Notes under the pieces: model-generated
The model's database searches: none
Told to the model about the DNA's origin: nothing
Seen by the model: the letters and a program-made list of their open reading frames with translations, nothing else
Assembly (NCBI GenBank): GCA_944377485.1
Contig: CALWFB010000004.1
Span: 12,582-76,581, forward strand
Reading direction: 5' to 3'
DNA from: an uncultured Clostridia bacterium
Lineage (GTDB): Bacteria > Bacillota > Clostridia > Christensenellales > UBA1242
Length of the DNA: 64,000 nucleotides
Program-made: the position numbers and the translations under genes
Part shown: positions 1 to 64,000 of the stretch, one piece after another
Position numbering within the stretch: the stretch's first letter is position 1
Layout: every line of letters starts with the position of its first letter

Positions 1-883
1 TAACCATTAAGAAAAGAATAAGAGGCAAAGCAAACAAAAATAATAATATATTAGATATAATGAAATATTTCCAATTCACTCTTTTTTTGACAATCCAATA
101 AATGTAAATTACAATCAACACCAATGGTATGAATATATATGATATAGCATAAGTATACAGCGTTATACCAAATAATATACAAGCAGGTATCATAAATTTT
201 TGGTTATCATTTGCTTTCATCAAAAAAATAATTGAAAACAAAAACATATATGGAAATAAATTGCAATCTAAACCCCATCTCGAAATCATAATGGTATAAG
301 GTACTAATGAAAAAACTGCCATTCCTATTAACGAAGCAAATTTGTTTTTTGTGATTAATTTAATCAAATAATAAAAAGCAAATATTCCACCAATAGAAAA
401 TAAAAGCATCACAATTCTAGCTGAAAAAACATTCATTCCAAAGATTGCAATAAACGGGATAGTTAAATATGCCAATAATGCACTTTGACCACTTCCCCAT
501 GCTTCAAGATAAATCGGATAAGAATGTCCGTTTCTATCAATTCCATAATGTAATAAAGAGTATGCATCATAAAGCATAGATGCTTCATCAACATTTAAAC
601 CTGCGGGAACATATACAAACAATATTACCCTAACTAAAATTGCAACTAATGCTATAGCCCAAAAAATAATGTAAAACCATTTTTTATTATCTAAAAATTC
701 ACTAATTTTTGTAAGATTATTTTTTCTATAATATATTGCTGCAACAATTAATAAAATTAATGATATAATATTTGCAATCAATGAAATTGCACTGCCATAA
801 TTTATATACGATAAAATTAAAAAAAGAAATACAAGAGCAAATAAACAAATTAAAAATATTGATTTTTTTTTAATCATTGACAT
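1..883 (-). CDS. GT-C fold membrane glycosyltransferase (ArnT/PMT-like); runs off the left edge
   Basis: Not in ORF track. ATG at 883 with GAGGAG SD reads MSMIKKKSIFLIC...PAGLNVDEASMLYDAY...YPIYLEAWGSGQS; multi-TM with luminal DE motif. Confidence 0.75.
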   Translation of the reverse strand, partial: MSMIKKKSIFLICLFALVFLFLILSYINYGSAISLIANIISLILLIVAAIYYRKNNLTKISEFLDNKKWFYIIFWAIALVAILVRVILFVYVPAGLNVDEASMLYDAYSLLHYGIDRNGHSYPIYLEAWGSGQSALLAYLTIPFIAIFGMNVFSARIVMLLFSIGGIFAFYYLIKLITKNKFASLIGMAVFSLVPYTIMISRWGLDCNLFPYMFLFSIIFLMKANDNQKFMIPACILFGITLYTYAISYIFIPLVLIVIYIYWIVKKRVNWKYFIISNILLFLFALPLILFLMV

Positions 884-2315
884 ACTCCTCTATCTTTAAA
901 TTCTTATTGCGTTCATTCTTTACAATTGCTAATATAATAAATACTAATGTAATGGTATTAACAATGATTGCAAATGTTCTTGTGACGTTTTGATTAAAAA
1001 ATAAATCATAAGAATGACACACACTTAAATATACTGCAAAATTCATAAATACTGAAATCAACATGTTAATTTTGTTTTTATTTACGCAAACATTAATAAT
1101 ACTTAGCATTAATGCAATGTAAAAGAATCTATCCAACATCTTTGGCATAAAGAATACCATAGTAAATGCAAATACCATTCCATAGAATACTAAATCATTT
1201 TTTGTTAAACCATATTTTTTGTATCTTTTAAATACTAAAAACAAAATTATAAAAAGCATTATCATTGTTAATGCTAAATGTGATATCATCAAAACATTTT
1301 TTATTGAACTGTTGTCTAAATCTAAAAGCATATAAATTTGACAAATATTTGCACAATTGCCAGCAAGTCTATTATCTTCAGTACTTTGATTTATATATAC
1401 TGTTAATAAATCTAAAATTGAACGTCCTGAAATAGCCGGTATTAAATTGATGCAATACATAACAGGCACAATCCAAATATCTTTCCATTTTAAGTATCTA
1501 TCACCATTTTCGTCTTTTATTATTAACATTACAAATAAAATTGGTACAATAAATAAAAATTGTAATTTAAAAGCAAAACTTATACCCAAAAACATAAAAC
1601 ACAATTTTGATTTTTTGTTAATTGCAAAATAAAATGCAAGCAAAGCAAATGACGTATATATTGCATCACATTGCCCCCAAGCAGTATATTCGATTAAAAC
1701 CATAGGTAATAACAAAATTGATACAAAAATTAGATAATTAAAATTAGTTTTTTTGATAGAAGAAATTATTTTTGTAATAATGAATGCCAATAATAATGAA
1801 AATAAAAATGTTATTAATTTTATTCCATATAAATCAGTGAATCCAAGTTTTGCCATTAATATTAAAAAATAATTATATGCAGGCGTATAATTACTAACGT
1901 CAATGATTCCATATAAAGCATCTTTAAGATTATGTGTAGAATAATATCCATACCATTTACTTAAATATTTGATATAATCATTAGACTCCCACACAACAAA
2001 TAATAAAGACATAATATAGATAAATAGCAATGCAATGTAAAAATACGTTAATTTTTTATATCTTTTAGTGTCATTTTTGATAATTGAATTAGTTCCCAAA
2101 ATCGCTATTATAAATAAAGGTATAAAAATTAGAATTGAATACAACGACAAATCCATTACATCAAAAGAATTCCATTTTATATAAATAATTGGAATTATTA
2201 ATAATGCAAAAGAAATAACTAAAATAGTAATAACTGTAATATTGAAAAATAAATTTTTTAAATTAGAATTGTAAATTCTTGCTCTATCTTTTAACATCGT
2301 AAACCCCAAAATCAT
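870..2315 (-). CDS. GT-C fold polytopic glycosyltransferase (GT87/mannosyltransferase-like)
   Basis: Many TM helices; NYTPAY, WGQCDAI, FKLQ and PKMLDRFFY motifs; overlaps the downstream GT gene. Confidence 0.65.
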   Translation of the reverse strand: MILGFTMLKDRARIYNSNLKNLFFNITVITILVISFALLIIPIIYIKWNSFDVMDLSLYSILIFIPLFIIAILGTNSIIKNDTKRYKKLTYFYIALLFIYIMSLLFVVWESNDYIKYLSKWYGYYSTHNLKDALYGIIDVSNYTPAYNYFLILMAKLGFTDLYGIKLITFLFSLLLAFIITKIISSIKKTNFNYLIFVSILLLPMVLIEYTAWGQCDAIYTSFALLAFYFAINKKSKLCFMFLGISFAFKLQFLFIVPILFVMLIIKDENGDRYLKWKDIWIVPVMYCINLIPAISGRSILDLLTVYINQSTEDNRLAGNCANICQIYMLLDLDNSSIKNVLMISHLALTMIMLFIILFLVFKRYKKYGLTKNDLVFYGMVFAFTMVFFMPKMLDRFFYIALMLSIINVCVNKNKINMLISVFMNFAVYLSVCHSYDLFFNQNVTRTFAIIVNTITLVFIILAIVKNERNKNLKIEEYVND

Positions 2316-2401
2316 TATAAAAAAACTTGTATTAATTTGTCAAATAATAAAAAATAATTTTAATAATTAATGAAACTATCTTAATTAAAATCATTTAATC
2401 G

Positions 2402-3811
2402 CTATTTTACTGAATCTATTTTGATTAGATTTGTACAACCATTTTTCTTTGGTGTACCACATGTTATTACAATAGTATCGTTGACCTTTGCATATTTTTT
2501 TCTTTTCACCAACTCGTTTGCAATTTCAAACATTTCATCAGTTGAATTGTATTCACTTGTCAATACTGGAATTACTCCCCAAGACAACTCTAACTGACGA
2601 TATACTTTTTCATTTGGTGTTGCACCTATTATTGGAACAAATGGCCGATATCTACTAATCATTCTAGCACTCATTCCTGATTGAGAGAACACTACTATCG
2701 CTCTTGTATTTTGAATTAAACTTGCATTTACTGCACTGTGAGATACTACATCTGTTGTATTTGTAATCTTATAGTTGCCTGACAAAAATCGCTTTGCATA
2801 ATTAATATGTTTTTCTGTCTCTGTTGTAATCTTTGCCATTGTCTCCACTGCTTGAACAGGGAATTTACCCATAGCAGTTTCGCCTGAAAGCATAACTACA
2901 CTTGTACCATCATATACTGCATTTGCTACATCGCTAACTTCTGCGCGGGTTGCACGATTATTATATATCATGCTCTCTAACATTTCGGTTGCAGTGATGA
3001 CCGCTCTACCTTTTTCCTTAGAACGTTTTATTATATTTTTTTGTAATTCTGGCAACTTTTCAACAGGCACTTCAACCCCAAGGTCCCCACGTGCCACCAT
3101 TATTCCATCAGAAGCATCAATAATTTCGTCAAGGTTTTTTACTCCACAGCTAGATTCAATTTTGGAAATAATTTTCATATCTCCACCATTTTTTTCTATA
3201 AAACTTCTAAGAGCAAACACATCTTCTTTACAATTAACAAAACTAGCAGCAATCAATTCAACATCATTTTTTATACCCCAAAGTATATCTTGTTTATCTA
3301 AATTATTTAGATATGGTGTACTATATTTCACATTAGGTATGCTTAAACTTTTTCTATTTGATAATACACCAGAATTCATCGCTTTCGTTATAACATCTTG
3401 CCCTTTCACTTCAAGTACTTTGAAAGTCAGCAATCCATTAACTGCCAAAATCTTATTACCTGCTTTTATGCATTTCACAATCTCAGGAGTGTTGAAACTA
3501 ACACTTCTTTCATCCCCAACTATATCTCTACCTGTGAAAATGAACTCCTGACCCTTTTTGATATTTACACTATCATTAACAAAGGTCTTAACTCTTACTT
3601 CTGGACCACGAGTATCAATCATTATAGGTAAAGGGACTTTCATTTCCTTTCTAATTCGTTTTACATTTTTTAAAATCTTTTCCATATCCTCAATTTTTGC
3701 ATGTGAAAGATTTATTCTGACAATATTCAATCCTGCTGATACTAATTTTTTCATAACTTCATATGAATTGCTGGCTGGACCAATTGTGCCAATTATCTTA
3801 GTTTTTCTCAT
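2402..3811 (-). CDS. pyk: pyruvate kinase
   Basis: RKTKIIGTIGPAS, IMVARGDLGVE, ATEMLESM and MLSGETA motifs; start moved to the ATG at 3811 with AGGAG SD. Confidence 0.97.
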   Translation of the reverse strand: MRKTKIIGTIGPASNSYEVMKKLVSAGLNIVRINLSHAKIEDMEKILKNVKRIRKEMKVPLPIMIDTRGPEVRVKTFVNDSVNIKKGQEFIFTGRDIVGDERSVSFNTPEIVKCIKAGNKILAVNGLLTFKVLEVKGQDVITKAMNSGVLSNRKSLSIPNVKYSTPYLNNLDKQDILWGIKNDVELIAASFVNCKEDVFALRSFIEKNGGDMKIISKIESSCGVKNLDEIIDASDGIMVARGDLGVEVPVEKLPELQKNIIKRSKEKGRAVITATEMLESMIYNNRATRAEVSDVANAVYDGTSVVMLSGETAMGKFPVQAVETMAKITTETEKHINYAKRFLSGNYKITNTTDVVSHSAVNASLIQNTRAIVVFSQSGMSARMISRYRPFVPIIGATPNEKVYRQLELSWGVIPVLTSEYNSTDEMFEIANELVKRKKYAKVNDTIVITCGTPKKNGCTNLIKIDSVK

Positions 3812-4068: not shown

Positions 4069-4096
4069 TTGAAATAAAAAAATTTTATGCTATAAT
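4069..4096 (+). promoter_or_regulatory. sigma-A promoter of ssrA
   Basis: TTGAAA-16 bp-TATAAT with extended TG, 8 nt before the tmRNA 5' end. Confidence 0.75.
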
Positions 4097-4104: not shown

Positions 4105-4455
4105 GGGGATGAATTAGTTTCGACTGATATAAACCTAAATTATACGCACGTCGTGTGGTGGCACGTTAAATACACAATTCGTTAACGACGAATAAAAATA
4201 AACGCAAACGAAAATAAATTAGCTTACGCTGCTTAGCGTGGCCGTCAGTTTAGTGGTACCGATACATTAAAACCTGGCGTCAAATATCGGTGAACGTCAT
4301 TGTGTATTTCCTTGTGCACAGTGATGACAAAAAAGGATAGCATTTATTCAGTGTCAATGTTAGTGAATATTTGTGAATATAGTCATTGACTAAACGTGTA
4401 GTGTATGATTTATATTTATGTTAGGACACGAGTGCAACTCTCGTCATCTCCACCA
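4105..4455 (+). ncRNA. ssrA: tmRNA; tag peptide (A)ANENKLAYAA encoded at 4204-4236
   Basis: GGGGATG...TTCGAC 5' end, 3' CATCTCCACCA, T-arm ACGAG-TGCAACT-CTCGT, tag ORF ending YAA-TAG, smpB nearby. Confidence 0.96.
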
Positions 4456-4821: not shown

Positions 4822-4831
4822 AACAAACTCC

Positions 4832-16829: not shown

Positions 16830-18440
16830 TTATTTAGTTTTCTTAGTAGTTGTTTTCTTAACACTAGTAGTTTTTACAGGAGTGCTAGCAGTCTTCTTGC
16901 TAGATGCTGTTTTTGTACTAGGTTTTGCTGTTTCTTTATTAGTAGCTGCAGCTTTTGTGGCTTGCTTTGGAGCAGCCTTAGTAGTCGTGCTACGTGTAGA
17001 AACAGTTTTAGGAGTTGATTTTTTCTTTGGTTGAACTTCTTCTTTAACTTCTACTTTTTCAACTTTTGCTTCATTATCTTCAACAGCAGTCACAGGCACT
17101 GTCTCACCATTACTTGCAACTATTGCTTCTGTCCTAACAGTTTTATTCTTTCTAATTACAAATTTATCCATCAAGAATTTAACAATGCAACCCAATACAA
17201 CTGAAATTGCTGTCACAACCCAGAACACTTCTGCCCAAGAATATGGAGTAGCTGGATTTTTGCCTCGAATTTCAACATAAAAGTAGATGAAAGGCATATG
17301 AAGCATATAGATATATAATGCTGAACCACCAAGATAGTCCAAAACTTTTGCTGTATACTTATTGTTTAATAATGCCGTCACATAATCTTTTCCTAATAAA
17401 GTCAAAGTAACCAAAACGATACACAACAAATGAATTGTTGTCCTGTATGTCCAATTGTTGGTAACCACCGAAGGTACATCTCCACTAGCCACTGAATTGT
17501 TGATGATAAATTCACCTGCAAGCCACTCAGGTTGAATAGTAAACATCACAATTAGCACAGCAACTGCTAAATATACGATAGTCAAAATCACTTTGGTAGC
17601 GATATTGTAATTTAATTTTTTCAACTTTTCGACAGCGTAATAGATGATTACTCCACCACACATTCCGATAAGCACGAACAACAAGCCATTGTTGAATCCT
17701 ATCACGCCAGTGCTGACAGCGGAACCAGTCACGCTAGGGTTCGTTGAATATTGTTCACCTAAAGTTGAGAAAGCTGCTTGAGAAGCACGTGTACCGCTCC
17801 AAGCCCACCATCCACCTAAGAACACGAACAAGAATGGTGCGATGAATCCTGCGAATACATCTTCATTTTTACACATTGCCCAATAGATAATGTAAGAACA
17901 TATCAAAAGTCCTGATATGAACCACATAGCGCCATTTGCCTGACTATAGGCAGCTGGATAACCTGCAGCATACAATCCCAAGAATTCCCACAACCCATTA
18001 AATACTGAGTTAATTGCTACTGCAAAAGTACTTTCTTGGAAAATAGCAACTGCTATCACGCCCAAGATAATGCCTAATGCTAGCACAGGAAGCAATGCTT
18101 TGATTCTACCCCAAAGGTATTCCCAAGCACGACCACTGGCAGTCCTTGAAGCATATTCAGGATTGGCTTGCAATCTCTTGAAATGCTTGACTAAGAAATA
18201 ACCAGCAGTTAAGGTGAACACAAATAGAATTTCACCAGCCCCAGCCATCCAGGTAGCCGCTTCTATAATTCCTGCCATAGTGCGAGGAGCCAAGATGGTA
18301 CCGATGTGATAGCCGAGAATTGCGATAGCGAAGAAGAAACGCCAAAATTCAATAGCATGATTTCTCTCCGACTTCTTTTGAGCAACCGTTTGAACTTGCT
18401 GAGTTTCAACAGGTTGTTCATTCACGATTTCTTTTGTCAT
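16830..18440 (-). CDS. acyltransferase family 3 membrane protein with a Lys/Thr/Ala-rich C-terminal tail
   Basis: RNHAIEFWRF...YH, FTLTAGY, NGAMWFIS and SALYIYMLH motifs; about 10 TM helices. Confidence 0.8.
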   Translation of the reverse strand: MTKEIVNEQPVETQQVQTVAQKKSERNHAIEFWRFFFAIAILGYHIGTILAPRTMAGIIEAATWMAGAGEILFVFTLTAGYFLVKHFKRLQANPEYASRTASGRAWEYLWGRIKALLPVLALGIILGVIAVAIFQESTFAVAINSVFNGLWEFLGLYAAGYPAAYSQANGAMWFISGLLICSYIIYWAMCKNEDVFAGFIAPFLFVFLGGWWAWSGTRASQAAFSTLGEQYSTNPSVTGSAVSTGVIGFNNGLLFVLIGMCGGVIIYYAVEKLKKLNYNIATKVILTIVYLAVAVLIVMFTIQPEWLAGEFIINNSVASGDVPSVVTNNWTYRTTIHLLCIVLVTLTLLGKDYVTALLNNKYTAKVLDYLGGSALYIYMLHMPFIYFYVEIRGKNPATPYSWAEVFWVVTAISVVLGCIVKFLMDKFVIRKNKTVRTEAIVASNGETVPVTAVEDNEAKVEKVEVKEEVQPKKKSTPKTVSTRSTTTKAAPKQATKAAATNKETAKPSTKTASSKKTASTPVKTTSVKKTTTKKTK

Positions 18441-18513
18441 TTTACCCCCTTTTATCACTAACTAAGAAAACGTTAGATATAAAGATTATGTGCAAAAAAA
18501 TAAAAAAAGTCAA

Positions 18514-22625: not shown

Positions 22626-24707
22626 TTATTCAGTTAATTTTTTTCTATCACCAATAATTTTGTCTGAAACATTCTTTGGACATTCAGCATAATGACTAAA
22701 TACCATAGTATATGTTCCACGACCTTGTGTAGAACCACGAAGGTCAGTAGAATAACCAAACATCTCAGATAATGGAACTTCTGCATGAATTACTTGTGAA
22801 CCGAATTTTGCCTCTGTTCCTGACAATATTCCACGACGAGAAGTAATTCCTCCCATTACAGTACCAAGATATTCATCTGGAACATTAACTTCCACTTTCA
22901 TAATAGGTTCAAGCAATACTGGGTCTGCTTTTTTCATAGCTTCTTTGAATGCCATAGAACCAGCAATCTTAAACGCCATTTCAGATGAGTCCACATCATG
23001 ATATGAACCATCAAATACAGTCACTTTAAAGTCAATTGTTTCATATCCTGCAAGCACACCTGACTTTTTAGCTTCTTGTATACCTGCATCAATTGGTGGA
23101 ATAAATTCCTTAGGAATAGCACCACCGACAATGGCGCTCTCAAAGACATATCCTTTATCTCTTTCAAGTGGTTCCATCTTGATTTTACAATGACCATATT
23201 GTCCACGACCACCTGATTGTTTGATATATTTACCTTCTGCTTCAACTGCACGGCGAATTGTTTCTTTGTATGCAACTTGTGGTTTACCAACATTTACTTC
23301 AACACCAAATTCTCGCTTCATTCTGTCAACCAAAATGTCAAGGTGCAATTCTCCCATACCAGCGATAATTGTCTGTCCTGTTTGGTCATTGGTGTATGAT
23401 TTAAATGTAGGGTCTTCTTCCATAAGTTTAGCAATTGCAATACCCAATTTTTCTTGTGCTTGTTTGTCTTTTGGCTCAATAGCCTCTTCGATAACTGGTT
23501 TCATGAATTCCATCTCTTCAAGTTTGATTGGGTGATTTTCGTCACACAATGTGTCACCAGTACCTGTATTTTTAAGTCCTACAACCGCACAGATATCTCC
23601 TGCTAATACTTCTGGAATATCCGTTCTATTATTTGCATGCATGTGTAGTAATCTACCAATTCTCTCTTTCTTATCCTTAGTAGAATTTAATACATAACTA
23701 CCAGATTCTAATTTTCCGCTGTATACACGAATGAATGTGATACGACCAACGTATGGGTCAGTAGCAATCTTAAATGCAAGTGCAGCAAATGGTTCGCTAT
23801 CGCTATTGTTTCTTTCAACTTCTGTTCCATCTGGAAGTGTACCTTTAATAGCTGGAACATCAATAGGACTTGGCATATAATCAACAACTGCATCAAGCAA
23901 TTCTTGTATACCTTTATTCTTTGCAGCAGTTCCACAAAGTACTGGGAATATTTTAAGAGTACATGTAGCTTTTCTTAGACCCTTTTTCAATTCATCGTTT
24001 GAAATTTCTTCTCCTGAGAAGAATTTGTCTAGTAAGACATCATCTGTCTCAGCGATTGCTTCTATCATTTTTTGTCTATATTCTTGTGCCTGAGCTAGCA
24101 TATCAGTTGGAATTTCTTCTTCACGATAATCTTTTCCAAGGTCATCATAGAATACATATGCTTTCATCTTGATTAAGTCAACTATACCTTTGAAAGTCTC
24201 TGCCTCACCAATAGGAAGTTGAATAGGAACAGCATTTGCACCCAACACTTCACGAATGCTCTTAACAGCTTTTAAGAAATTAGCATCATTGATGTCCATT
24301 TTGTTTATAAAACATATACGAGGAACATTGAATTTTGATGCTTGACGCCAAACGTTTTCACTCTGAGCTTGAACACCAGCACGTGCACTAAATAGAGCAA
24401 CAGCACCGTCCAAAACTTTCAATGAACGTTCAACTTCAACTGTAAAGTCAACGTGTCCTGGGGTATCGATAATATTGATTGTACAATCTTGCCATTGACA
24501 AGTAGTACAAGCAGAAGTAATAGTAATACCACGTTCTTGCTCTTGTGCCATCCAGTCCATGGTTGCCTGACCGTCATGCACTTCACCAAGTTTATGATTG
24601 ATACCTGTATAGAAAAGTATACGTTCAGTTGTAGTTGTTTTACCAGTATCAATGTGTGCCATGATACCAATATTTCTAATTTTTTCTAATGGAACTTGTC
24701 TTGCCAT
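22626..24707 (-). CDS. fusA: elongation factor G
   Basis: [25 protein letters not shown] and [10 protein letters not shown] motifs. Confidence 0.99.
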
Positions 24708-41926: not shown

Positions 41927-42319
41927 CTACTCCTTTACATCTAGCACAACTTTAATGTGACTAGTTCTTGTGACAATTCTATCAGCGCCATGTGCTCTAC
42001 CACGGAAATAAACTTTATTTACTCGTGTAGGACCTGCACCTAAGATAACTTCTGCCAACTTCAAATCATGAACATTCATTCCCTTGTTGTGCTCAGCATT
42101 TGCACCAGCAGATTTAACCACTTTTAAAAGAATCGCTGCTGCATCTTGTGGCATATTAGATAAAATTGCCACTGCATCATCATAACTCTTACCACGTACT
42201 GTGTCGATAACAATCTTTGCCTTTGTAGGAGAAAGACGAACGTGACGAACACAAGCATATGGACGAGTGTCTTTAACTGCTTTGATTTTTTCTGATTTTT
42301 CTCTAATTCTCTTTGCCAT
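41927..42319 (-). CDS. rplV: 50S ribosomal protein L22
   Basis: RLSPTK, SAGANAEHN and RTSHI motifs. Confidence 0.95.
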   Translation of the reverse strand: MAKRIREKSEKIKAVKDTRPYACVRHVRLSPTKAKIVIDTVRGKSYDDAVAILSNMPQDAAAILLKVVKSAGANAEHNKGMNVHDLKLAEVILGAGPTRVNKVYFRGRAHGADRIVTRTSHIKVVLDVKE

Positions 42320-42328
42320 AGTTCACTC

Positions 42329-42607
42329 CTACTTTTTACCCTTTGCATCTTTTTGTTTGTGTCCTTTGAAGGTACGAGTTGGAGCAAATTCTCCCAACTT
42401 GTGACCTACCATGTCCACTGTGCAATATACAGGTATATGTTTTTTACCATTGTGTACAGCGATTGTGTGCCCTACGAATTCTGGATAGATAGTACTTGAA
42501 CGAGACCATGTTTTGATGGCTTTTTTCTCATTCTTTTCATTCATCTCAGTAATACGTTGCATCAACTTTTCTTCCACGAATGGTTTTTTCTTCAAACTTC
42601 TACTCAT
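42329..42607 (-). CDS. rpsS: 30S ribosomal protein S19
   Basis: KTWSRSS and [13 protein letters not shown] motifs. Confidence 0.98.
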
Positions 42608-42616
42608 AAACTACTC

Positions 42617-43453
42617 CTACTTAGCTTTGGCTCTCTTGACAATCAATTTGTCACTAGCCTTTTTATGTTTTCTAGTCTTGTATCCAAGAGCTGGTTTACC
42701 CCAAGGAGTGACAGGACCTGCGTGACCAACTGGTGATTTACCTTCACCACCACCATGTGGGTGGTCAACTGGGTTCATCGCAGAACCACGCACTGATGGT
42801 CTAACACCTAAGTGACGTTTACGTCCAGCTTTACCAAGGGATACGATTTCATTTTCTTCATTACCGATTGTACCGATAGTAGCACGACACACAGCAAGTA
42901 CTTTTCTCATTTCGCCAGAAGGTAAGCGCAAAGTTGCGTATGCCCCTTCTTTTGCCATAAGTTGAGCAGACATACCCGCACTTCTAGCCATCTGTCCACC
43001 TTTACCTGGTTGCAATTCAATATTGTGAACAATAGCACCTAGCGGAATATCTTTCAATTCAAGTGCATTACCTGGCTTAATTTCAGCGCCAGTTCCGCTC
43101 ATAACCCTATCTCCAACATTAAGTCCCTTTGGAGCAAGGATAAATCTCTTTTCACCATCAGCATATGTCAACAATGCAATATATGCTGTTCTGTTTGGGT
43201 CGTATTGGATACTTTCAACTTTTGCCATGATTCCATCTTTATTACGTTTGAAATCAATTTTTCTATATTTGCGTCTATTAGCGCCACCAATATTACGAAC
43301 GGTTATTTTACCCTGAGCATTACGACCGCCTGTCTTTTTAACTTCTGTCAGCAATGACTTTGGTGCTACTGCATCTTTTGTCAATTCATCATATGTCTTG
43401 TAGGTTTTGAATCTACTGCCGGCAGATGTAGGTTTTATCTTTCTTATCGCCAT
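42617..43453 (-). CDS. rplB: 50S ribosomal protein L2
   Basis: YDPNRTA and [13 protein letters not shown] motifs. Confidence 0.99.
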
Positions 43454-43465
43454 AATCTACTCCTT

Positions 43466-43768
43466 TTAGTTCAAACTCTCGAAGAATGCGATAGCCTTTG
43501 ATTCAGGTTTCAAGAAAACAATTGCTTTCTTGTAATCGCTCGTTCGACCAGTCACTCGACCTTGTTTTGTATTTCTTGATTTTTCTTTTCCTTTGCAGTT
43601 TACAGTATTCACACGTTCAACTTGAACTTCAAACAATTCTTCAACTGCTTTTTTGATTTCCACTTTGTTTGCATTTACATTAACTTTAAATGTATACACT
43701 TTGTTTGGGAAGCCAGCGTACGACTTTTCAGTCATAATCGGCTCCAAGATTATTTCTTGCGCTTTCAT
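43466..43768 (-). CDS. rplW: 50S ribosomal protein L23
   Basis: PIMTEKS, ANKVEIKKAVE and YKKAIV motifs. Confidence 0.97.
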   Translation of the reverse strand: MKAQEIILEPIMTEKSYAGFPNKVYTFKVNVNANKVEIKKAVEELFEVQVERVNTVNCKGKEKSRNTKQGRVTGRTSDYKKAIVFLKPESKAIAFFESLN

Positions 43769-44391
43769 TATACGTATGCCTCCTCTAATTTCTTAATTGC
43801 ATCTTTTGTGAACACTAAATATGTGTTTTCTACTACTTGTGCCACATTGAGTAGCATAACATCTTCACAACTAACTTTTTGAATATTTCCAGTTGCTCTT
43901 ATTACGCCCTCATCTTTTCCATTAGTTAAAATCATAGTACGTTTATTCAAACCAAATGTCTTTAAGAATTCGCTAGCACTCTTGGTTTTGTTGTCAGCAA
44001 ATTTTACTTCATCTAGAATGAACACTTCGTTTTGTCTGATTTTTTGTGATAATGCAGATGAAAATGCTATATCTCTCATCTTCTTATTAATCTTTTGACT
44101 AAAATCACGTGGTTTTGGAGCGAATACTACACCACCACCATCGAATTGTGGAGCACTACGTTCATCATGACGAGCACCACCAGTACCTTTTTGTCTGTAT
44201 AATTTCTTCTTACTAGCATTAACTTCGCTACGAGTAAGAGTTGATTTTGTTCCTTGTCTTGCGTTGTTGTGCAATGCTACAACCACTTGATGAATAAGTG
44301 GTTCGTTATAGTCTGCATCGAACACTAAATCGTTCAGACTAATATCGCCAACCGCCTCTTTCTTCATATTATAAACTTTTAGTTTCGCCAT
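43768..44391 (-). CDS. rplD: 50S ribosomal protein L4
   Basis: RQGTK, RQKGTG and GGGVVFAPKPR motifs. Confidence 0.97.
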   Translation of the reverse strand: MAKLKVYNMKKEAVGDISLNDLVFDADYNEPLIHQVVVALHNNARQGTKSTLTRSEVNASKKKLYRQKGTGGARHDERSAPQFDGGGVVFAPKPRDFSQKINKKMRDIAFSSALSQKIRQNEVFILDEVKFADNKTKSASEFLKTFGLNKRTMILTNGKDEGVIRATGNIQKVSCEDVMLLNVAQVVENTYLVFTKDAIKKLEEAYV

Positions 44392-44402
44392 AGTTTACTC
44401 CT

Positions 44403-45035
44403 TTAAGCTTTCACCGCAGATTTGATAGTGACGATTGATTTCTTTGGTCCAGGAATTGCACCTTTAACCAAAATCAAATTTCTATCAGCATCTACACGTA
44501 CAACTTTAAGATTTTGCACTGTCACGGCTTCATGACCGTAGTGACCTGGCATCTTTTTGCCTTTGAATACTCTACTAGGTGTTGAGTTTGCGCCCATTGA
44601 ACCTACTTCTCTATGAACAGGTCCAACACCGTGAGTCATTTTTAATCTCTGTTGATTCCAACGTTTAATTACACCAGTGAACCCATGTCCTTTGGTAATT
44701 CCAGATACGTCTACCAAATCTCCTTCGCTAAACATATCTGCTTTAATCTCTTGACCAAGACTAAATTTTGAAACGTCATCATATTTAAATTCTTTCATCA
44801 CACGTTTTGGTTCTACACCAGCTTTTTTGAAAGCACCAGCTTGTGATTTGTTCACATTCTTTGCTTTGATATCTCCGAATGCTACTTGCACTGAGTTATA
44901 ACCATCTGTGTCTGTAGTCTTAATTTGAGTCACATAGCAAGGACCTGCTTCAATTACTGTCACAGGTTCAACTCTTCCGTCATCAGTAAACACTTGTGTC
45001 ATACCGATTTTTCTACCAATAATCGCTTTTTCCAC
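44403..45035 (-). CDS. rplC: 50S ribosomal protein L3 (GTG start)
   Basis: [19 protein letters not shown] and VKGAIPG motifs. Confidence 0.98.
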
Positions 45036-49973: not shown

Positions 49974-50789
49974 TTATTTTGTAAATACCAATACTCTATC
50001 TATTCCGTTAAGGTCTAGCACAGATTCTACAAAATTAAAATCATTAAATAATGAAATGATTGGTTGTTTTTGATTGTATCCTATCTCCAATATCAACATT
50101 CCACCATCATTTAAATGTTTTCGTGCCTCATTATGAATATCGTTAAAGAACTTCAAGCCCATATCTCCGCCATCTAGTGCAAGTATTGGGTCATAGTCTT
50201 TTACTTCTTTATCCAAATCTTCAATTTCATCCGTTGCAATATATGGAGGATTTGAAACTATTAAGTCAAATTTCCCGTCCACTTTATCAAACATATCACT
50301 CTTTAAAAATTCTACATTTACCTTGTTGATTTTTGCATTCTTTTTGGCAATCTGCAATGCTTTATTTGATATATCTGTTGCAAGCATTTCAATATCAGAA
50401 TTTTTTTTGATGGCAATGGCAAGACAACCACTACCAGTACACAGGTCTATACAAGACTTATAACCCTTTTCATTAATATACTTCAAAGTTGTATCTACAA
50501 CAACTTCACTATCTTGACGAGGAGATAAAACATTCTCATCAATATAAAATGTCATACCATAAAAATATGCTTTTTTGAATAATTTGTCTATTGGAATATC
50601 TGTATCCAATCTAATCGTTGCATATTCTCTAATCGTCTGTTCGGTCATGTCATCTATATCTTCAATCAATGTCAGTTCAGTTCTTGGCACGTTTAAAACT
50701 TCGGACACAATAAAATCTACATCAGCACTATCTTTTTCGTGCTGACAATATAAATCCTTTAATTCTTTTCTTAATTCAATCAATTTCAT
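49974..50789 (-). CDS. prmC: release factor glutamine methyltransferase
   Basis: DLCTGSGC, SNPPYI and ALDGG motifs; adjacent to prfA. Confidence 0.95.
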   Translation of the reverse strand: MKLIELRKELKDLYCQHEKDSADVDFIVSEVLNVPRTELTLIEDIDDMTEQTIREYATIRLDTDIPIDKLFKKAYFYGMTFYIDENVLSPRQDSEVVVDTTLKYINEKGYKSCIDLCTGSGCLAIAIKKNSDIEMLATDISNKALQIAKKNAKINKVNVEFLKSDMFDKVDGKFDLIVSNPPYIATDEIEDLDKEVKDYDPILALDGGDMGLKFFNDIHNEARKHLNDGGMLILEIGYNQKQPIISLFNDFNFVESVLDLNGIDRVLVFTK

Positions 50790-52980: not shown

Positions 52981-55900
52981 TTAAACATTTGTCAAGAAGT
53001 TTAATATAATGCCAACTCTATTAGTCCATACATTGTTTGCAAAGTCGAATGTCAATTCTCTTTCATAATGTTGATTATACGGAATGAATAATCCCCATAC
53101 TCTTGCAGTCAATGTGTGAGTTCCTCTAAATGTTGAAGACTGATTGAATTCAGATGAATTTACAGTTTTAACATTGTTGTGGTTTCCTGTTTGATTATAT
53201 GAAGTATTGAATTGTCCTCCTCTGAATTCTGCAGAAATATAAGACTTACCATAATATCCTGCTCTATCTGTATTGATAACAACACTTTCCATTCTACCAG
53301 ATGCGGCAGTACCAGCATAGATGTTGTAGTTATCAGAAGTTCCTTCGCTGGTCTTGTCTTTCCACGTTTCACGATAGAAAGTACCATAACCATTTAGTGT
53401 GCTGTCAATTGTAGCATTTCTTAATGTTGCAGTATTAGGGAATTCCAAAACTAATAGAGATGTTCTAGTATTATTTGTTTGACCATACAATTGGCTAACT
53501 GCTTGAATGTCAGTAATTGTTCCATAAGTAAAGTTATAACATATTCCTGCTACGAATTTATCACCAGTAATGTAATTTTCACTGATTAAATCGCCTTCAG
53601 GATTGAAATTAGCCACCAATACTTGACTAACAGTTGCACTTGCATTTGCCATATTTACTACTACACCAGAGACATAGTTTCCGTATATATCAGAACCTGC
53701 AATAGCTTGTGATATGCTTGAATTTACTGTTGAATTATTTGCAGCAATTCCACCCACATAGAAATCTTTTCCTTCATAATATGAACCGACTGTTGCCATT
53801 AGATTATATGCATTATTGATTGTTGAATTGTTTGTTGCTACTATTCCACCAACATACATTTGAGCAATATTCACATCATTTAGAGCAATTCCTGTTCCTA
53901 ACATTCTAACATTTAATATCGTTCCATTATTTATAGCACTGACTCCACCAACTTGTAAAGTTCTATTTGTCTGTTCAATAGTCATCTCTAATGTCATATT
54001 AGAATTAGAAATTGTACCATTATTCAAGGCACTGATACCTGCAACATATGCATCATTGTTATCTTGTGCATATTTAACAACCACATTACCAGTCAAGTTA
54101 TCAATTGTGCCATAGTTTTCTGCAACTGCTCCACCGACACGTAATGTACCATAAATTGTTGAACTTGTGATATTTGCTTGTGCAAGTGTTCCGTCATTTA
54201 TTATTCCAATTAATCCGCCTACATATGAAGTTGAATTAGAAGAAGGTAAATTCAAGTTTGACACTCCAACATTAATCATTGTTGAATTATTGTCTAATCT
54301 TGCTACTAATCCACCAAAGTATGTACTTGAACCAAGATTTGCAGTTGAATATACAACTTGAACATTTTCAATAAATGAAGCACTTTCAGCAGTAGTTGAA
54401 ATCACTCTTCCAGCCAATGCACCAACATTAGTTGCACCTGTTGTGTTAAGCACTACATTCTCAATTACCAAATCTCTTATAGTTGAATTGTCTATAACTG
54501 AGAATAATCCTAAATCTCCACTCGTATGATTTGTTAAATTTAATCCAGTAATTTTGTAGCCATTACCGTCAATGATGCTATTTTTCAATTCAATAGGTGT
54601 CCAATCTACACCTGTTAAATCTACATCTCCGCCTAAAACATATTTCTTATTAACTATTGCGCCATCAGCATCTAAACAATCTTCAATAAATTGCATGAAT
54701 AATTCTGCATTGGTTTCGCCGTCATTGTCAGGAGTACCTATGGTCTCTTCTTCCAAATCTTTTAAGAAATATTCACTAGAAATAGAACTTAAATTAGCAT
54801 TTGTCATTCTCAATCTAGGTAGTGAGCCAATAATGATGTTCCAAGCTGAATTGTCCCAATATGTCTTCGTATTTTGGTCAATAGCATAGAATACATATTC
54901 TGTATTGTTTGCCATATCTGCCAAATTGTTGAATTGTACTATAAAGTAAATTCCATCAGCTTCGTTATAAAATCCTCTTGTAAAGAAAGTATCATCATAA
55001 CTATTTACTACGTTTCCAGAACTTGCTAATACATAATTACCTACTAAATGTCTCAATTGATTAGCATTTTCTGCTACGAATGAACTATCTTTTTCGATTG
55101 TACCTATGAATGAACCAAAGTTTGCATAAGTGCTAGTTGATACAGAATAAGACTCTTGAATAGAACCACTATTTGTTCCTATGATTAATTTACCAGCAAA
55201 TCCGCCAATATCTCCACTTGCATTGTATAAAGAAATTTCAGTATCGGCGAATGTGGCTTGAACTTTTGCCTTGTCGATTTCGCCCACTAAGCCACCAGCA
55301 ATTCCTGTAATTGTTGAAACCGTAGGATTCTCAGCAGTTGATGCCGTTCCAATTGTCAAAACTGCGTCTTGTACGCTAGATATTGTCAAAGTTGAATTTT
55401 CACCTGACAAACTACCAATCAAAGCACCAGTTTTTGAATTGTTCATAGTGTTTGCAATATTTACATTAACTGCTTGCACTCTTGAAACTGTTCCATTGAC
55501 TGTACCTGCCAAAGCACCTGCTGTTTGATACGCACCTGAAATTTCAACATCTTTAATATTTAAATCTGTCACAACAGAACCAGCATTTAATGTAGTGAAT
55601 AAACCAGCATTTGCATATTCAGTTCCAGTTAAATTTAATGAACTAATTGTATGTCCGTTTCCATTAAATACACCACTAAAACCAAGATATGTTTCTACTG
55701 CATAACTATAACCAATAGGTCTGAAATCATTACTCAAAGTGATATCAGTTCTCAAAGTATAATTAGCATTCAAAGCATAAGTATCACCAATTTTTTGTAA
55801 ATCAGATTGGCTATCAATATAATAAGGATTAGCAACTGAACCGTCACCAATATGAACTGTTATATTAAATTCTGCATATTTTTCGTTAGTAGTAGTAATT

Positions 55901-56190
55901 AAAAGGTTAACTTCTCCACCCTTATTTGCGACATAATAACCTCTATCTTCATTATAGTTGATAAATTGTGTCACTTCCTCACCACCGGCATTAAAGTTAT
56001 ATGTAGTATCTTTATGTTCTTTGAACACTGTATAACCTAAGTCATCTAAGGTTATAACATCTCCTACATTACAATAAATTTCTTTTGTTTTAAAGTCGAT
56101 TGCTTCGTCATTACGCAAAAAATAGTATGTAGTAAGCCCTATGCATACTACAACAACTATTGCAACTAGAAAAACTAAAAATTTCTTCAT
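52981..56190 (-). CDS. large N-anchored surface protein with GLUG-type repeats
   Basis: N-terminal TM; GDGSVANPYYI and FNGNGHTIS motifs; repeated VGG(L/I)(A/V)G units; Asn/Thr/Gly-rich. Confidence 0.75.
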   Translation of the reverse strand: MKKFLVFLVAIVVVVCIGLTTYYFLRNDEAIDFKTKEIYCNVGDVITLDDLGYTVFKEHKDTTYNFNAGGEEVTQFINYNEDRGYYVANKGGEVNLLITTTNEKYAEFNITVHIGDGSVANPYYIDSQSDLQKIGDTYALNANYTLRTDITLSNDFRPIGYSYAVETYLGFSGVFNGNGHTISSLNLTGTEYANAGLFTTLNAGSVVTDLNIKDVEISGAYQTAGALAGTVNGTVSRVQAVNVNIANTMNNSKTGALIGSLSGENSTLTISSVQDAVLTIGTASTAENPTVSTITGIAGGLVGEIDKAKVQATFADTEISLYNASGDIGGFAGKLIIGTNSGSIQESYSVSTSTYANFGSFIGTIEKDSSFVAENANQLRHLVGNYVLASSGNVVNSYDDTFFTRGFYNEADGIYFIVQFNNLADMANNTEYVFYAIDQNTKTYWDNSAWNIIIGSLPRLRMTNANLSSISSEYFLKDLEEETIGTPDNDGETNAELFMQFIEDCLDADGAIVNKKYVLGGDVDLTGVDWTPIELKNSIIDGNGYKITGLNLTNHTSGDLGLFSVIDNSTIRDLVIENVVLNTTGATNVGALAGRVISTTAESASFIENVQVVYSTANLGSSTYFGGLVARLDNNSTMINVGVSNLNLPSSNSTSYVGGLIGIINDGTLAQANITSSTIYGTLRVGGAVAENYGTIDNLTGNVVVKYAQDNNDAYVAGISALNNGTISNSNMTLEMTIEQTNRTLQVGGVSAINNGTILNVRMLGTGIALNDVNIAQMYVGGIVATNNSTINNAYNLMATVGSYYEGKDFYVGGIAANNSTVNSSISQAIAGSDIYGNYVSGVVVNMANASATVSQVLVANFNPEGDLISENYITGDKFVAGICYNFTYGTITDIQAVSQLYGQTNNTRTSLLVLEFPNTATLRNATIDSTLNGYGTFYRETWKDKTSEGTSDNYNIYAGTAASGRMESVVINTDRAGYYGKSYISAEFRGGQFNTSYNQTGNHNNVKTVNSSEFNQSSTFRGTHTLTARVWGLFIPYNQHYERELTFDFANNVWTNRVGIILNFLTNV

Positions 56191-60102: not shown

Positions 60103-60304
60103 ATTTACATTAAAAATAATTAAAAAAATAAAAAAATATTATAAATTAATTAAAAAACAATATAAATTCATTAAAATATATTGTTTTTTATTTTTTTATT
60201 TTTAAATTATAAATAAAATTATATAATTTATCTTAATATTTTTCGCATAAAATAAAATTATAATAATATAAATAAAAATAATTTTTTGAAAATTAAATCT
60301 TTTA

Positions 60305-61051
60305 TTAAATTTTTTGATTTCCTAAACCATGAGCCAGTGTCAACACATATATCTCTTTTGCTCCAGCAGACAAAATAATTTTGCTTAATTCATTACATGT
60401 GGAACCTGTTGTGTATACATCGTCAATAATTAAAACCGTCTTATCTTTTACTTCTTTTTTGTATTCGTTATTAAATTTGAATACGTTCTTCACATTTTCC
60501 TTTCTTTGCTTTAAATCTAATTCCGTCTGACTTATGTTATCCACAATTTTCACACACAAGTCATAATAAGGAATGTTATATTTTTCACTTAAAAATCTAG
60601 CAATGCATTCAGATTGATTATATCCTCTTCTTTTTAATTTTGATAAATGTAAAGGAACACTTGTTATTATATCTGGATTTATGTTCCATGTAGCAAAATA
60701 TTCGCACAAAAATTTTCCTAGTGGTTCGGACAAAAACTTCATTCTATTATATTTAAATTTGTGTATTACAGAAATAATTTTGTCTTTATATGAAAATACA
60801 CATCTAGCTAATTTAAAATCAAAATTACTAGATTTACAATTAAGACAAACTCCGCTGTTATCATCTCCAACAGGTGCTCCACATCTAAGACATGAATGAG
60901 TTATGAAAGGTAAAGAATTCATACATTCTTCGCACGTGTCATTATATGAATTCTCATTCAATTCATTGCCACAAAAAATGCACTTTATATGTCTAGGATA
61001 AAGTAAATCTAATATATAGTCTTTAAATTTCTTTAATTTATTCGCATTCAT
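60305..61051 (-). CDS. comF: ComF-family competence protein (double zinc ribbon plus PRTase)
   Basis: Four CxxC pairs, RRGYNQS and IDDVYTTGST motifs. Confidence 0.92.
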   Translation of the reverse strand: MNANKLKKFKDYILDLLYPRHIKCIFCGNELNENSYNDTCEECMNSLPFITHSCLRCGAPVGDDNSGVCLNCKSSNFDFKLARCVFSYKDKIISVIHKFKYNRMKFLSEPLGKFLCEYFATWNINPDIITSVPLHLSKLKRRGYNQSECIARFLSEKYNIPYYDLCVKIVDNISQTELDLKQRKENVKNVFKFNNEYKKEVKDKTVLIIDDVYTTGSTCNELSKIILSAGAKEIYVLTLAHGLGNQKI

Positions 61052-61206
61052 CTTTCGTAAATTTATTTTTTAACTGTTATATCTATATTAAATTAAATAA
61101 AAAATTTATTATATAATACTTATTTTTATATTTAATGTCAAATATTTATTAAATTTCAAATAAAAAATAAAATTTTTTAATTATTAATAATAAAAAAGCT
61201 GACTAA

Positions 61207-61530
61207 TTAGTCAGCTATAAAATAAAATGTATTTTTAACTTGTGGTAATTTAGCATAGCGATATAAAATATTAAAATAAGAATCTTCGTTTAAATTTATA
61301 TTTAATTTTGTGCTCATTCCAACATTATGAATCAATCTTTCAACAAATTCAGCAAAGAAATATGGCATCTCTTGGTAATGATTTTTTTTAACCTCTGCCA
61401 AATCAAATTTGATAAAACCATATTGTTTTAGAAATTCATCTTTGTCTGGCAATGATTTATACATGTATTCTTCTCCATCAAAAGACAGCTCTCCTATCTT
61501 ATAATTTTCATAACAAAGTTTAATTTTCAT
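61207..61530 (-). CDS. HipA N-terminal-like (Couple_hipA/HipS-like) small protein
   Basis: KLCYENYKIGELSFDGEEYMY...MPYFF pattern; ATG 61530 overlaps the kinase stop. Confidence 0.5.
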   Translation of the reverse strand: MKIKLCYENYKIGELSFDGEEYMYKSLPDKDEFLKQYGFIKFDLAEVKKNHYQEMPYFFAEFVERLIHNVGMSTKLNINLNEDSYFNILYRYAKLPQVKNTFYFIAD

Positions 61531-63076
61531 AAGCGACCTCACGAACACCAAATTTACCATCTAATTCTAAACCGAAATTAATTAATCTAGATTTTTCTGT
61601 TTCATTTAATTTTTTATTTGTGAAAGAATTTACATATTTAATATATTTCTTTAAAGTTTTTTCTATCTGTTTAAATAATTTTTTATCTTCATTGCTAAGT
61701 TTTGATTCGTCATGTTTTACACTTTCTATCCAATCTTGTAATTCTTTAAATAATGGATATTCTTCACATACGAACATCATACCTTGATTCTGTACAAAAT
61801 TTTTATCACGCTTTTCTTCTTTAAACATATAATCTCTATCAAAAAATAAATAATTAATATCAGCCTCGAAAGAGTGAACCACAAATTTCCTCTCCATATT
61901 GTATTCTAATATCTTACTATAATATTGAAGTCTTTTCCTTTGCAATTCATCATGAGCCAATTTAATCTCTGGATTATCATTATCAAGCGCCAATTTTTTG
62001 CATTCATCGTAATATTTCCAAAAATAAATTTCTCCTCTCTTCCCTGAATTGAAATTTTTTATATTTGCACTATATTCATCATCTGAAAAATACGCACTCA
62101 ATTTAGAACATATATCACCTATTTCATCTTCATTAATTTCATTTGCATGACGTTTCATTACTGCATACACGACTTCAAATGGTATATATTCTTCATTATT
62201 TTCTCTCAAATGACAATTTTTTATTTTTAAAATTACTACCGATTGAATTTCATCTTTCATTGACAAATATATATCTTTACCAAATAGTTCTTTTAGTCCG
62301 TATTGAGAATCAAATTCCTCCATAAGTTCTGCAAATTTTTCATCACTAAATGTCTGTTCAAACCATGTCAGCATCTCTTTATATTGAGTATTTAATAATT
62401 TCTGCTGCTCAAAACCGTAAACTTTGCAATCATTTGGATTCATTCGATAAAAGTCTTTGGTCTTATAAAAAAATGCATTTCCGTTATCATACATTGGTGC
62501 TAAATCTAAGACATATTTATCTTTATTTTCTTTCATTACAAACGCAAAATTATTGTTATGTCTATCACTTTGTTTAGTTAGATAATCAAAGCAAATCATT
62601 TTGTTCAATTTATTTGTCAATGCTTGTTTGTCCAATTCTAAATTCGGAGTGTCTTTAATTCTATTTTCAATATTCTTGATTATATCATCAGTTGTGGTTG
62701 CTGCTCCGCACGTTCCAATTTGTTCGCCAAAACAAGCATAAGTCGCATGTTTACCAAAATCAGGAGAAATTACACCTATTGCTTTTGTTTTATGGTCGAT
62801 TAATAATTTAGTATCAATACAGTCTATACCAACTTTTTTAGCAATAAAAGAAACAAATAGTTCGACAAATATTTCATAATCGAATCCTCCAAGTGCAGGA
62901 TATTTTACAAAATATTTTTTACCATCAATCTCAATAAATTTACTTGCCGTTCTACCTAAATGAGAACAGTATTCAGAATCTTTTGTATTCTCTATTTCAT
63001 AAACACCTGATAGTCCTTTTAATTTTGTACTATCCAAATGCTCATAAAGAGAATCCGTATTTTTTATTTCACTCAT
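61520..63076 (-). CDS. HipA/CtkA-family kinase with a long C-terminal extension
   Basis: YFVK, ELFVS, FDYL..QSDRHNNN and LAPMYDNG catalytic motifs; ATG 63076 lies 6 nt after TTGACA-17-TATAAT. Confidence 0.8.
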   Translation of the reverse strand: MSEIKNTDSLYEHLDSTKLKGLSGVYEIENTKDSEYCSHLGRTASKFIEIDGKKYFVKYPALGGFDYEIFVELFVSFIAKKVGIDCIDTKLLIDHKTKAIGVISPDFGKHATYACFGEQIGTCGAATTTDDIIKNIENRIKDTPNLELDKQALTNKLNKMICFDYLTKQSDRHNNNFAFVMKENKDKYVLDLAPMYDNGNAFFYKTKDFYRMNPNDCKVYGFEQQKLLNTQYKEMLTWFEQTFSDEKFAELMEEFDSQYGLKELFGKDIYLSMKDEIQSVVILKIKNCHLRENNEEYIPFEVVYAVMKRHANEINEDEIGDICSKLSAYFSDDEYSANIKNFNSGKRGEIYFWKYYDECKKLALDNDNPEIKLAHDELQRKRLQYYSKILEYNMERKFVVHSFEADINYLFFDRDYMFKEEKRDKNFVQNQGMMFVCEEYPLFKELQDWIESVKHDESKLSNEDKKLFKQIEKTLKKYIKYVNSFTNKKLNETEKSRLINFGLELDGKFGVREVAYEN

Positions 63077-63167
63077 AATTATATTATACACCTTCCATAA
63101 TACATTGTCAATATTTAAACAAATTATGAAAAATATCTTTAAATTTTTTTAATGCAAGAAAATAATT

Positions 63168-64000
63168 TTAAATATCTATTTTTTTTATATCATTTATTGA
63201 AAAATCTAAATTTTCTAATCTTTCTTTTTCTTGTTGTGTTAGATGCTTGTTTGTATTTGCATTTACAAAAGCCATATATCTTTTTAACAATTTTTTTATT
63301 TTTTTATATTCTGTTTTCTTTGCTTCTGATATATGCTTCACCTTATTTTCTATTTGATTACACCATTCCTTTAATTCTTTGAATGAATTGTATTCTTTAA
63401 AAATTTGATATTTTCTGAACTCTTTATCATGTCTTCGATTATCTTTTTTATCTTTAAATATTTCCATATCAAACAATAAATATTTTATATCTTCTAATGG
63501 CCAGTGAGAAAATTCTTTTCCTTTAATAATATTAAATAATATTTTAGCATTTAATTTTCGTTTTTTATCTTCTAACTCAATTTTTGCACATAACAATTCT
63601 GGATTGTTTTCGTCAGTTATCAACTCTTTGCATTCATCGTAATATTCCCAAATTGACATCTCTCCCATTGTTTCGTTATAAAAGTTTTTATAACTTAATC
63701 TGTATGTTTCTTCGCCATAATATTCTAATAATTTGAATACAGCTTCATGCAACTTGTGAATGTCGGTAAATTCACTCTTATGTCTCTTTACTATTGCGTA
63801 TACCGCTTCTATTGGAATATATGTTTGTCTTGTATCTCTATATTTACAATAACTAATTTTTTCTCGAACTGTACTTTTGATTTGTTCTATGATGTCTGAA
63901 TAATCCATATTATTATAAATTTTATTCATTCCATATTCGTCATTAAATTCTTCTATTAATTTGTCAAATTTTTCTTCACTAAAATTAATCTCAAACCATT
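63168..64000 (-). CDS. paralog of the 61520-63076 kinase gene; begins beyond the right edge
   Basis: Frame is open to the window edge: WFEINFSEEKF...EEF..YG vs WFEQTFSDEKF...EEF..YG; also shares YIPxExVYAxxKRH and WxYYDECK. Confidence 0.75.
   Translation of the reverse strand, partial: WFEINFSEEKFDKLIEEFNDEYGMNKIYNNMDYSDIIEQIKSTVREKISYCKYRDTRQTYIPIEAVYAIVKRHKSEFTDIHKLHEAVFKLLEYYGEETYRLSYKNFYNETMGEMSIWEYYDECKELITDENNPELLCAKIELEDKKRKLNAKILFNIIKGKEFSHWPLEDIKYLLFDMEIFKDKKDNRRHDKEFRKYQIFKEYNSFKELKEWCNQIENKVKHISEAKKTEYKKIKKLLKRYMAFVNANTNKHLTQQEKERLENLDFSINDIKKIDI

Follow-up and report, generated by a model that had tools for sequence, protein, structure and literature searches.

The DNA word GTWAC (GTAAC or GTTAC) is almost absent from the core chromosome of an uncultured bacterium which, judged by the relatives of its elongation factor G (EF-G), is placed among uncultured gut and rumen Clostridia. 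The stretch of DNA analysed here, referred to as the window, is a 64 kb segment (G000:C4:12582-76581, numbered 1..64000 below) of the metagenome-assembled genome of this species, G000, which has 1,020,563 bases in 23 contigs, 30% G+C, the standard genetic code, a completeness of 98.3% and a contamination of 0.13%. G000 belongs to a genus represented by 64 genomes at the species level, each close to 1 Mb in size. We propose, with a probability of roughly 0.7, that GTWAC is the present or very recent target of a classical Type II restriction-modification (R-M) system, with a separate endonuclease and methyltransferase, in this lineage. GTWAC is short, is its own reverse complement and in both respects resembles a Type II recognition word.

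GTWAC occurs exactly twice in the window, at 17407..17411 and 17461..17465 (both GTAAC on the plus strand), as had been counted in an earlier reading made from the letters alone (the sequence-only reading). In 100 dinucleotide-preserving shuffles of the window 89.9 +/- 9.8 occurrences were expected, and all 100 shuffles held at least two. The same reading had held that GTAA[AGT] and GTTA[AGT] were present in the hundreds, and these were indeed found 180 and 160 times, respectively. The depletion extends to the whole genome, where 67 GTWAC sites were found against 807 expected under a maximal-order Markov model, an observed/expected ratio (O/E) of 0.083. In the 791 genes called as open reading frames (ORFs), 49 sites were found against 954 +/- 20 in 30 synonymous-codon shuffles, in which the codons were shuffled gene by gene (O/E 0.051). 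Both ratios are far from 1, in line with the genome-wide depletion that had been suspected. In the same 791 genes and with the same shuffles, the sister word GTSAC was in excess (1086 vs 611), and in the DNA of G000 lying outside ORFs and ribosomal RNA (rRNA) genes GTWAC was found 11 times against 102 expected.

The depletion is written into codon choice in all three reading frames. Valine codons preceding ACN in the window were GTG or GTC in 53 of 55 cases, the other two being GTT at the two residual sites, compared with 298 of 1177 valine codons elsewhere in the window; genome-wide the figures were 765/792 (97%) and 4385/16550 (26%), so that the preference for GTG and GTC before ACN, which had been noticed in a handful of window genes, holds throughout. 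Likewise, tyrosine and asparagine following a codon of the form xGT were encoded by TAC or AAC in only 13 of 1290 cases, compared with 18% elsewhere in G000, and leucine placed between a codon ending in G and one starting with C was TTA in 9 of 253 cases, compared with 43% elsewhere. With all three frames and non-coding DNA affected, the depletion acts on the DNA itself, and the two kinds of shuffle and the Markov model show that neither base composition nor neighbouring words nor codon usage accounts for it.

How the sites were lost was examined by comparison with G006, the closest species genome, which aligns with G000 over 366 kb at 79.5% identity. G006 carries 219 GTWAC at aligned positions, of which 217 (99%) are lost in G000 and 2 are kept, while control pentamers differing from GTWAC at one position were lost in 54-56% of cases. 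The central W was replaced by S at 46% of the GTWAC sites, compared with 10-14% in the controls; there were 101 such changes, and 82 sites became exactly GTSAC. This pattern supports the view, already expressed in the sequence-only reading, that GTWAC was lost through site-by-site selection on the DNA word and not through passive mutational decay.

GTWAC is not a lone signal. In an unbiased scan of all words of four to seven bases, with degenerate letters allowed, GATC ranked first (107 vs 2500 expected, O/E 0.043), GTWAC second and CTNNAG third (323 vs 1857, O/E 0.174, with every variant depleted), and CGCG reached 0.18; a separate scan of plain words of four to six bases added CGWCG (0.27), GGCC (0.28) and GGATG (0.33). 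The depletion of each of these co-purged words was confirmed by the synonymous-codon shuffles. In the window GATC is found once against 141 expected and CTNNAG 18 times against 120 expected, and CGCG and CGWCG are found five times each. G000 has thus been purged of at least seven words, all of the kind recognised by Type II restriction enzymes.

The GTWAC sites that remain are highly clustered. When 15 bins of 5 kb (69 kb in all) were picked solely because they contain at least three GATC, they were found to hold 57 of the 67 GTWAC sites, leaving 10 in the remaining 950 kb; these bins take in defence islands, a prophage fragment and the rRNA genes. Residual GATC and CTNNAG share 5-kb bins with residual GTWAC (r = 0.73 and 0.57, respectively). 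The first 15 kb of contig C6, a defence island, hold 19 of the 67 sites, and the prophage-tail contig C22 holds eight. Two further contigs contain many copies of the words avoided in the core, namely C19 (L095), with an 877-aa gene combining SIR2 and a STAND NTPase in a defence-type architecture, and C20 (L096), with a pemK RNA motif (RF02913). The rRNA genes account for another eight sites (five in 23S on contig C5, two in 16S on contig C7 and one at a 16S 3' end on contig C9), which are kept through functional constraint and not through recent arrival; a transfer RNA (tRNA) gene on contig C18 holds one more. Both sites of the window lie in one minus-strand gene for a 542-aa membrane acyltransferase (16830..18458; Acyl_transf_3, PF01757, E 7.9e-14), in which the site at 17407 reads GTT-ACN, coding for Val-Thr. 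This gene also holds five of the 18 window CTNNAG and two GGATG, and was probably acquired not long ago as an accessory gene.

Within the genus, each species avoids a set of words of its own. Stretches of 2-400 kb were sampled from each of the 63 other species, and only genomes with at least eight sites expected were used in the tallies. An O/E below 0.25 was found for GATC in 29/60 genomes, GGCC in 19/52, CGCG in 8/52, GGATG in 8/55, GTSAC in 5/47 (G014, G016, G019, G023 and G036), CTNNAG in 5/60, CGWCG in 4/32 and GTWAC in 1/57 (G082), with G032 at exactly 0.25 for the last word. In the sampled stretches the GTWAC purge is limited to G000, G082 (0/13, 2/16 and 1/16 observed/expected in three stretches) and G032 (0/20, 1/19, 0/26 and 6/18 in core stretches, with normal counts in its islands), with a partial depletion in G061 (3/10, 2/11 and 6/11). 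The gene for EF-G (fusA, 22626..24707, minus strand), a fully purged core gene without any GTWAC, was the marker by which relatives were identified and a tree was built. In this tree, computed from the EF-G nucleotide sequences of 30 genomes out of the 64, the grouping was (G082,(G079,(G000,G006))), with G032 sister to G020, and the GTWAC state needs three changes, a count that is indicative only, as it comes from a single gene in a region with recombination. Avoidance thus changes quickly in evolution, and the species-specific combinations of words suggest that R-M systems are often gained and lost. A separate observation concerns the sister species G036 (L136), which mirrors G000 in that GTSAC is found once against 21 expected and GTWAC 15 times against 6.

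Outside the genus, 80 loci centred on the EF-G gene were fetched and six shorter than 6 kb were dropped; none of the remaining 74 was depleted in GTWAC, the lowest O/E being 0.55. A 13.4-kb metagenome contig from outside the genus (L261) had no GTWAC against 11 expected, with GATC, CTNNAG and CGCG at normal levels, and GTWAC avoidance therefore exists outside the genus as well.

Avoidance of the sites of orthodox Type II R-M systems by their hosts has been described, and where the system is absent such avoidance is taken as what a lost system leaves behind (Rusinov et al. 2015, PMC4687349). The GTWAC case is similar in that a short word is rare, new DNA is unpurged, the matching system is absent and close relatives differ. 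It differs in that GTWAC is not known to be tied to a characterised enzyme and that seven words are purged from one 1-Mb genome in which one complete classical R-M pair was found. Restriction-site avoidance, including the traces of lost systems, is already well described; since the principle is known, what is new here is which word is avoided, how strong its purge is and how finely avoidance varies from species to species. The threshold for under-representation in that earlier survey is reportedly about 0.78, and the GTWAC purge, with about 1% of the expected sites left in the core, is far stronger than that.

The R-M system proposed here would act through incomplete methylation, which would lead to occasional cutting of the cell's own DNA, and would do so again whenever the system was gained or lost, so that each GTWAC site would carry a small cost. 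Selection may then have cleared about 99% of the sites from vertically inherited DNA, mostly by synonymous changes that would leave the excess of GTSAC. Sites would survive where the sequence is functionally fixed, as in the rRNA genes and one tRNA gene, or where DNA has newly arrived, as in the defence islands, the prophage fragment and accessory genes. The same process would have run for GATC, CTNNAG, CGCG, CGWCG, GGCC and GGATG, and the GTWAC system would be resident in, or a repeated visitor to, three or four lineages of the genus. The agent is most likely a nuclease that acts on a specific sequence, and we infer that it is an R-M endonuclease whose genes are lost, variable among strains or missing from the metagenome-assembled genome. 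The pattern matches restriction-site avoidance in every feature except an identified enzyme.

Enzymes specific for GTSAC, of which Tsp45I is the prototype, recognise a word that shares the outer bases GT.AC with GTWAC and has S instead of W as its central pair, and this word is over-represented in G000. One may speculate that a GTWAC enzyme would be related to them. M.Hpy99II, a beta-class methyltransferase producing N6-methyladenine (m6A), is assigned to GTSAC (PMC3936762). GTWAC itself was reported as a methylated motif in genomes from marine metagenomes, where it had no match in REBASE at that time (Hiraoka et al. 2022, PMC8919816), and this implies that enzymes recognising GTWAC exist in nature. 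That report concerns methylation in unrelated organisms, whereas in G000 the evidence for the same word is of avoidance only. For the third purged word, CTNN6mAG is a known methylation motif both in a gut Barnesiella (bioRxiv 10.1101/2022.11.07.515285) and in Mycoplasma dispar (PMC6385981), so that methyltransferases recognising CTNNAG likewise exist.

A number of observations weigh against a GTWAC-specific R-M system. As the sequence-only reading had stated, no responsible gene lies in the window, and none was found in the rest of G000 either, within the families searched and at the completeness given above. No shared candidate gene was recognised in G032, G082 and G061, genomes that were not annotated in full. 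The papers listed as mentioning GTWAC include no restriction enzyme of that specificity, and we know of none. At least seven purged words have to be set against one complete classical R-M pair and one multi-gene defence island bearing methyltransferases in G000. Selection looks ongoing or just ended, given that only ten sites are left in 950 kb of core DNA, which fits poorly with a long-lost system, and the completeness of the core purge is not explained by the genes found. Moreover, the prophage-like contig binned with G000 is rich in GTWAC and GATC, which would be unexpected for a phage adapted to a host that restricts these words, unless the contig was mis-binned. As to phages, the tail protein of contig C22 had no relatives in the viral contig collection, and no clustered regularly interspaced short palindromic repeat (CRISPR) array was found in G000, so that there are no spacers to link phages to this host. 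To the same side belong two loci of G000 that were tried as the agent and rejected, as described below. The specificity of most R-M genes is, on the other hand, unreadable from their sequence, and mobile R-M genes are often lacking from genomes assembled out of metagenomes.

G000 has three DNA methyltransferases, one of the beta class with an N6_N4 domain (C2:1544-2335, with an SPPY motif) and two of the C5 type, both on contig C6. No gene of the D12 family was found above the cut-off, no N6_Mtase was found beyond a PrmC-like gene, and when the 926 ORFs with 120 aa or more were searched for the motif [DNS]PP[YFWH], no further DNA methyltransferase candidate emerged. Neither a DpnII-family nor an Mrr_cat endonuclease was found in G000, most other endonuclease families not having been searched.

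The first candidate to be considered was an Hpy99I-type pair (L087; G000 C2:927-2335), composed of a 201-aa His-Me nuclease (C2:927-1532) and a 263-aa N6_N4 methyltransferase (C2:1544-2335; E 1.2e-45), the SPPY motif of which we take to be linked to N4-methylcytosine (m4C). The nuclease matched the Pfam families Endonuclease_7 and His_Me_b4a2 and aligned with PDB 3fc3 over residues 25-195 (E 8e-43), residue numbers being shifted to account for a 10-residue tag on the PDB chain. In the structure of Hpy99I the bases are contacted by Asn83, Gln84, Arg94, Asp162 and Arg170, and Asp148, His149 and Asn165 are catalytic (PMC2699513); all eight residues are kept in the G000 nuclease, and the five base-contact residues are kept in all 81 aligned members of the family. 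M.Hpy99I is an m4C methyltransferase of the beta class acting on CGWCG (PMC3936762). The G000 pair thus shares with Hpy99I its catalytic and base-contact residues and a beta-class partner, and CGWCG is avoided in G000 as noted above, so the pair is predicted to target CGWCG. Metagenome contigs whose homologues have this recognition loop were poor in CGWCG and normal in GTWAC, with observed/expected counts of 1/14 and 17/16 (L283), 1/12 and 16/15 (L292) and 3/22 and 26/34 (L285) for the two words. Because the five base-contact residues are kept and the hosts of several homologues are CGWCG-poor and GTWAC-normal, the pair accounts for CGWCG and not for GTWAC.

The pair is absent from the other 63 species of the genus. 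In contig L255, which comes from a different assembly and represents another strain of this species, the flanking DNA is 98-99% identical to contig C16 of G000, and the allele of the pair is only 79% identical in DNA; a divergent allele inside near-identical flanks makes the locus look like a replaceable cassette. The L255 allele itself contains a GTWAC site, a further ground on which the pair was rejected as the GTWAC agent. The first 5.3 kb of contig C2 are without GTWAC, which was taken as chance. The GTWAC-free contig from outside the genus, L261, also carries an Hpy99I-like pair, with 57% identity in the nuclease and 77% in the methyltransferase, but as one case among 31 contigs tested it does not make for a significant association of such pairs with a lack of GTWAC.

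The second candidate was the MZA-like defence island at the start of contig C6 (L088; G000 C6:1-15500), which encodes the two C5-type methyltransferases, a YpsA/SLOG protein, a LexA-like repressor and homologues of MzaB, MzaC, MzaD and MzaE, with HATPase, Z1, DUF4420 and AIPR domains, none of which reaches its curated equivalog cut-off. The methyltransferase pair recurs in G081 (83% and 81% identity) and in G013 (56% and 58%), both of which have normal GTWAC counts, and it was rejected as the GTWAC agent on this account.

R-M genes were also found in the other depleted species. G032 has a type I methyltransferase and, in an integrase-linked island (L214; G032:C2:84000-100000), a Bsp6I-family endonuclease with two C5-type methyltransferases. 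The specificity of Bsp6I is presumably GCNGC, and the O/E of this word was 0.15 in the island stretches (L209 and L214, 36 kb) compared with 0.53 in the core; an island poor in the word with a core that is not would be expected if the system had arrived recently. In G082 a DpnII-type cluster (L217; G082:C22:1-8400) holds a DpnII-family endonuclease, two D12 genes, an N6_N4 gene, an Mrr_cat nuclease, a GmrSD-like protein and an AAA_15 ATPase, and GATC is low (3/41 and 5/40 observed/expected). The DpnII system of G082 with its low GATC and the Hpy99I-type pair of G000 with its low CGWCG are positive controls within the genus. A further pair in G082, with a neighbouring gene of 886 aa, looks like a putative type III R-M system, judged solely by its N6_N4 methyltransferase match. 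G061 has several methyltransferases.

A broader alternative is that the core genomes of this genus are kept almost clear of target words, GTWAC among them, which change over time, and that methylation is not the main means by which these bacteria live with nucleases, a reading which we regard as rather unlikely. It would add that the absence of the word is the mark of self, that mobile nucleases are gained and lost cheaply, and that the agent belongs to a new nuclease family or to a mobile element left unbinned; this extension is given equally little credence.

For GTWAC in particular, the sequence-only reading had raised the idea that the cell erases its sites instead of methylating them, which would mean a GTWAC endonuclease without a methyltransferase, resident or repeatedly invading, with self defined by the lack of the word. 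G000 indeed has no m6A methyltransferase and has only three DNA methyltransferases for at least seven purged words, its core purge is nearly complete, and the lack of a CRISPR array would make other defences matter more. Still, erasure as a full replacement is unsupported, because an unprotected nuclease would cut the sites remaining in the rRNA genes, and 57 of the 67 residual sites lie in DNA that is evidently tolerated. Furthermore, no solitary endonuclease was found in G000 among the DpnII and Mrr_cat families, the ones that were searched, and an endonuclease without its methyltransferase is described as highly toxic to the cell (PMC3488263). We therefore consider such a system improbable, though in a weaker form of the idea a low number of sites may cut the cost of living with mobile nucleases.

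It is similarly improbable that the agent is not a restriction enzyme at all and that the purge reflects some other protein acting on GTWAC, for instance a transposase or integrase with this target preference, a DNA-binding regulator, a nucleoid protein, or a nuclease that phages or competing cells bring in. The failure to find an R-M gene for GTWAC would agree with such an agent, as would reports of GTWAC as a binding or integration consensus of unrelated proteins. However, GTWAC was purged alongside GATC, CGCG, GGCC and GGATG with the same spatial pattern, as seen in the per-bin correlation with GATC, and a regulator site would not vanish in all reading frames and between genes as well. In addition, the sister word GTSAC, a known R-M specificity (M.Hpy99II; PMC3936762), was purged in five other species of the genus.

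Mutational decay, in which the cytosine of GTWAC is methylated to 5-methylcytosine (m5C) and the sites are lost by deamination, is very improbable and is largely refuted by the substitution pattern. G000 does have two C5-type methyltransferase genes, and among single substitution types at the sites lost relative to G006 the two most frequent were C>T in the fifth base (48 cases) and G>A in the first (46 cases). Nevertheless, general AT-biased mutation pressure also yields these two changes, and both are outnumbered by the changes from W to S, which deamination cannot produce and which run counter to the AT bias; moreover, the C5-type pair of contig C6 is found in G081 and G013 without GTWAC depletion.

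An artefact of assembly, binning or library preparation might be suspected in a 23-contig metagenome assembly in which contigs C17, C19, C20 and C22 differ in word content and may be mis-binned, but for the core genome it is refuted and its probability is negligible, as the purge lies in intact conserved genes where it is compensated by synonymous codon choice, is present on all large contigs of a genome of high completeness and low contamination, and is found again in the independently assembled same-species contig L255 (1 GTWAC vs 12 expected).

The preferred reading of GTWAC as a restriction target has consequences beyond this species. From the footprint one would predict that gut Clostridia exchange a restriction system specific for GTWAC, a specificity that, as far as was checked, is assigned to no characterised enzyme, and the genus also carries footprints of CTNNAG and GTSAC. 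The combination of avoided words constitutes a species-specific "avoidance barcode" that can serve to flag newly imported DNA, to give the direction of recombination and to recruit unbinned contigs. An example of the second use is the ribosomal-protein segment at 42277..45000 of the window, which is 99.5-99.7% identical to G006, compared with the aligned average of 79.5%. In the matching segment G006 has no GATC and no GTWAC, although it is otherwise rich in both, and so it has probably imported the segment, in a recent transfer, from a purged lineage.

Among the other features of the window, the sole methyltransferase-like gene (49974..50789, minus strand) has an MTS domain (PF05175, E 5.9e-19), an NPPY motif and a weak match to N6_Mtase (21 bits). 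From what is known of its family, the product is a small PrmC/HemK-like enzyme and not an R-M DNA methyltransferase. A large minus-strand ORF of 1069 aa (52981-56190) had no Pfam match at an E-value of 1e-5, and a transfer-messenger RNA (tmRNA) gene is located on the plus strand at 4105-4455 (Rfam RF00023, 143.5 bits).

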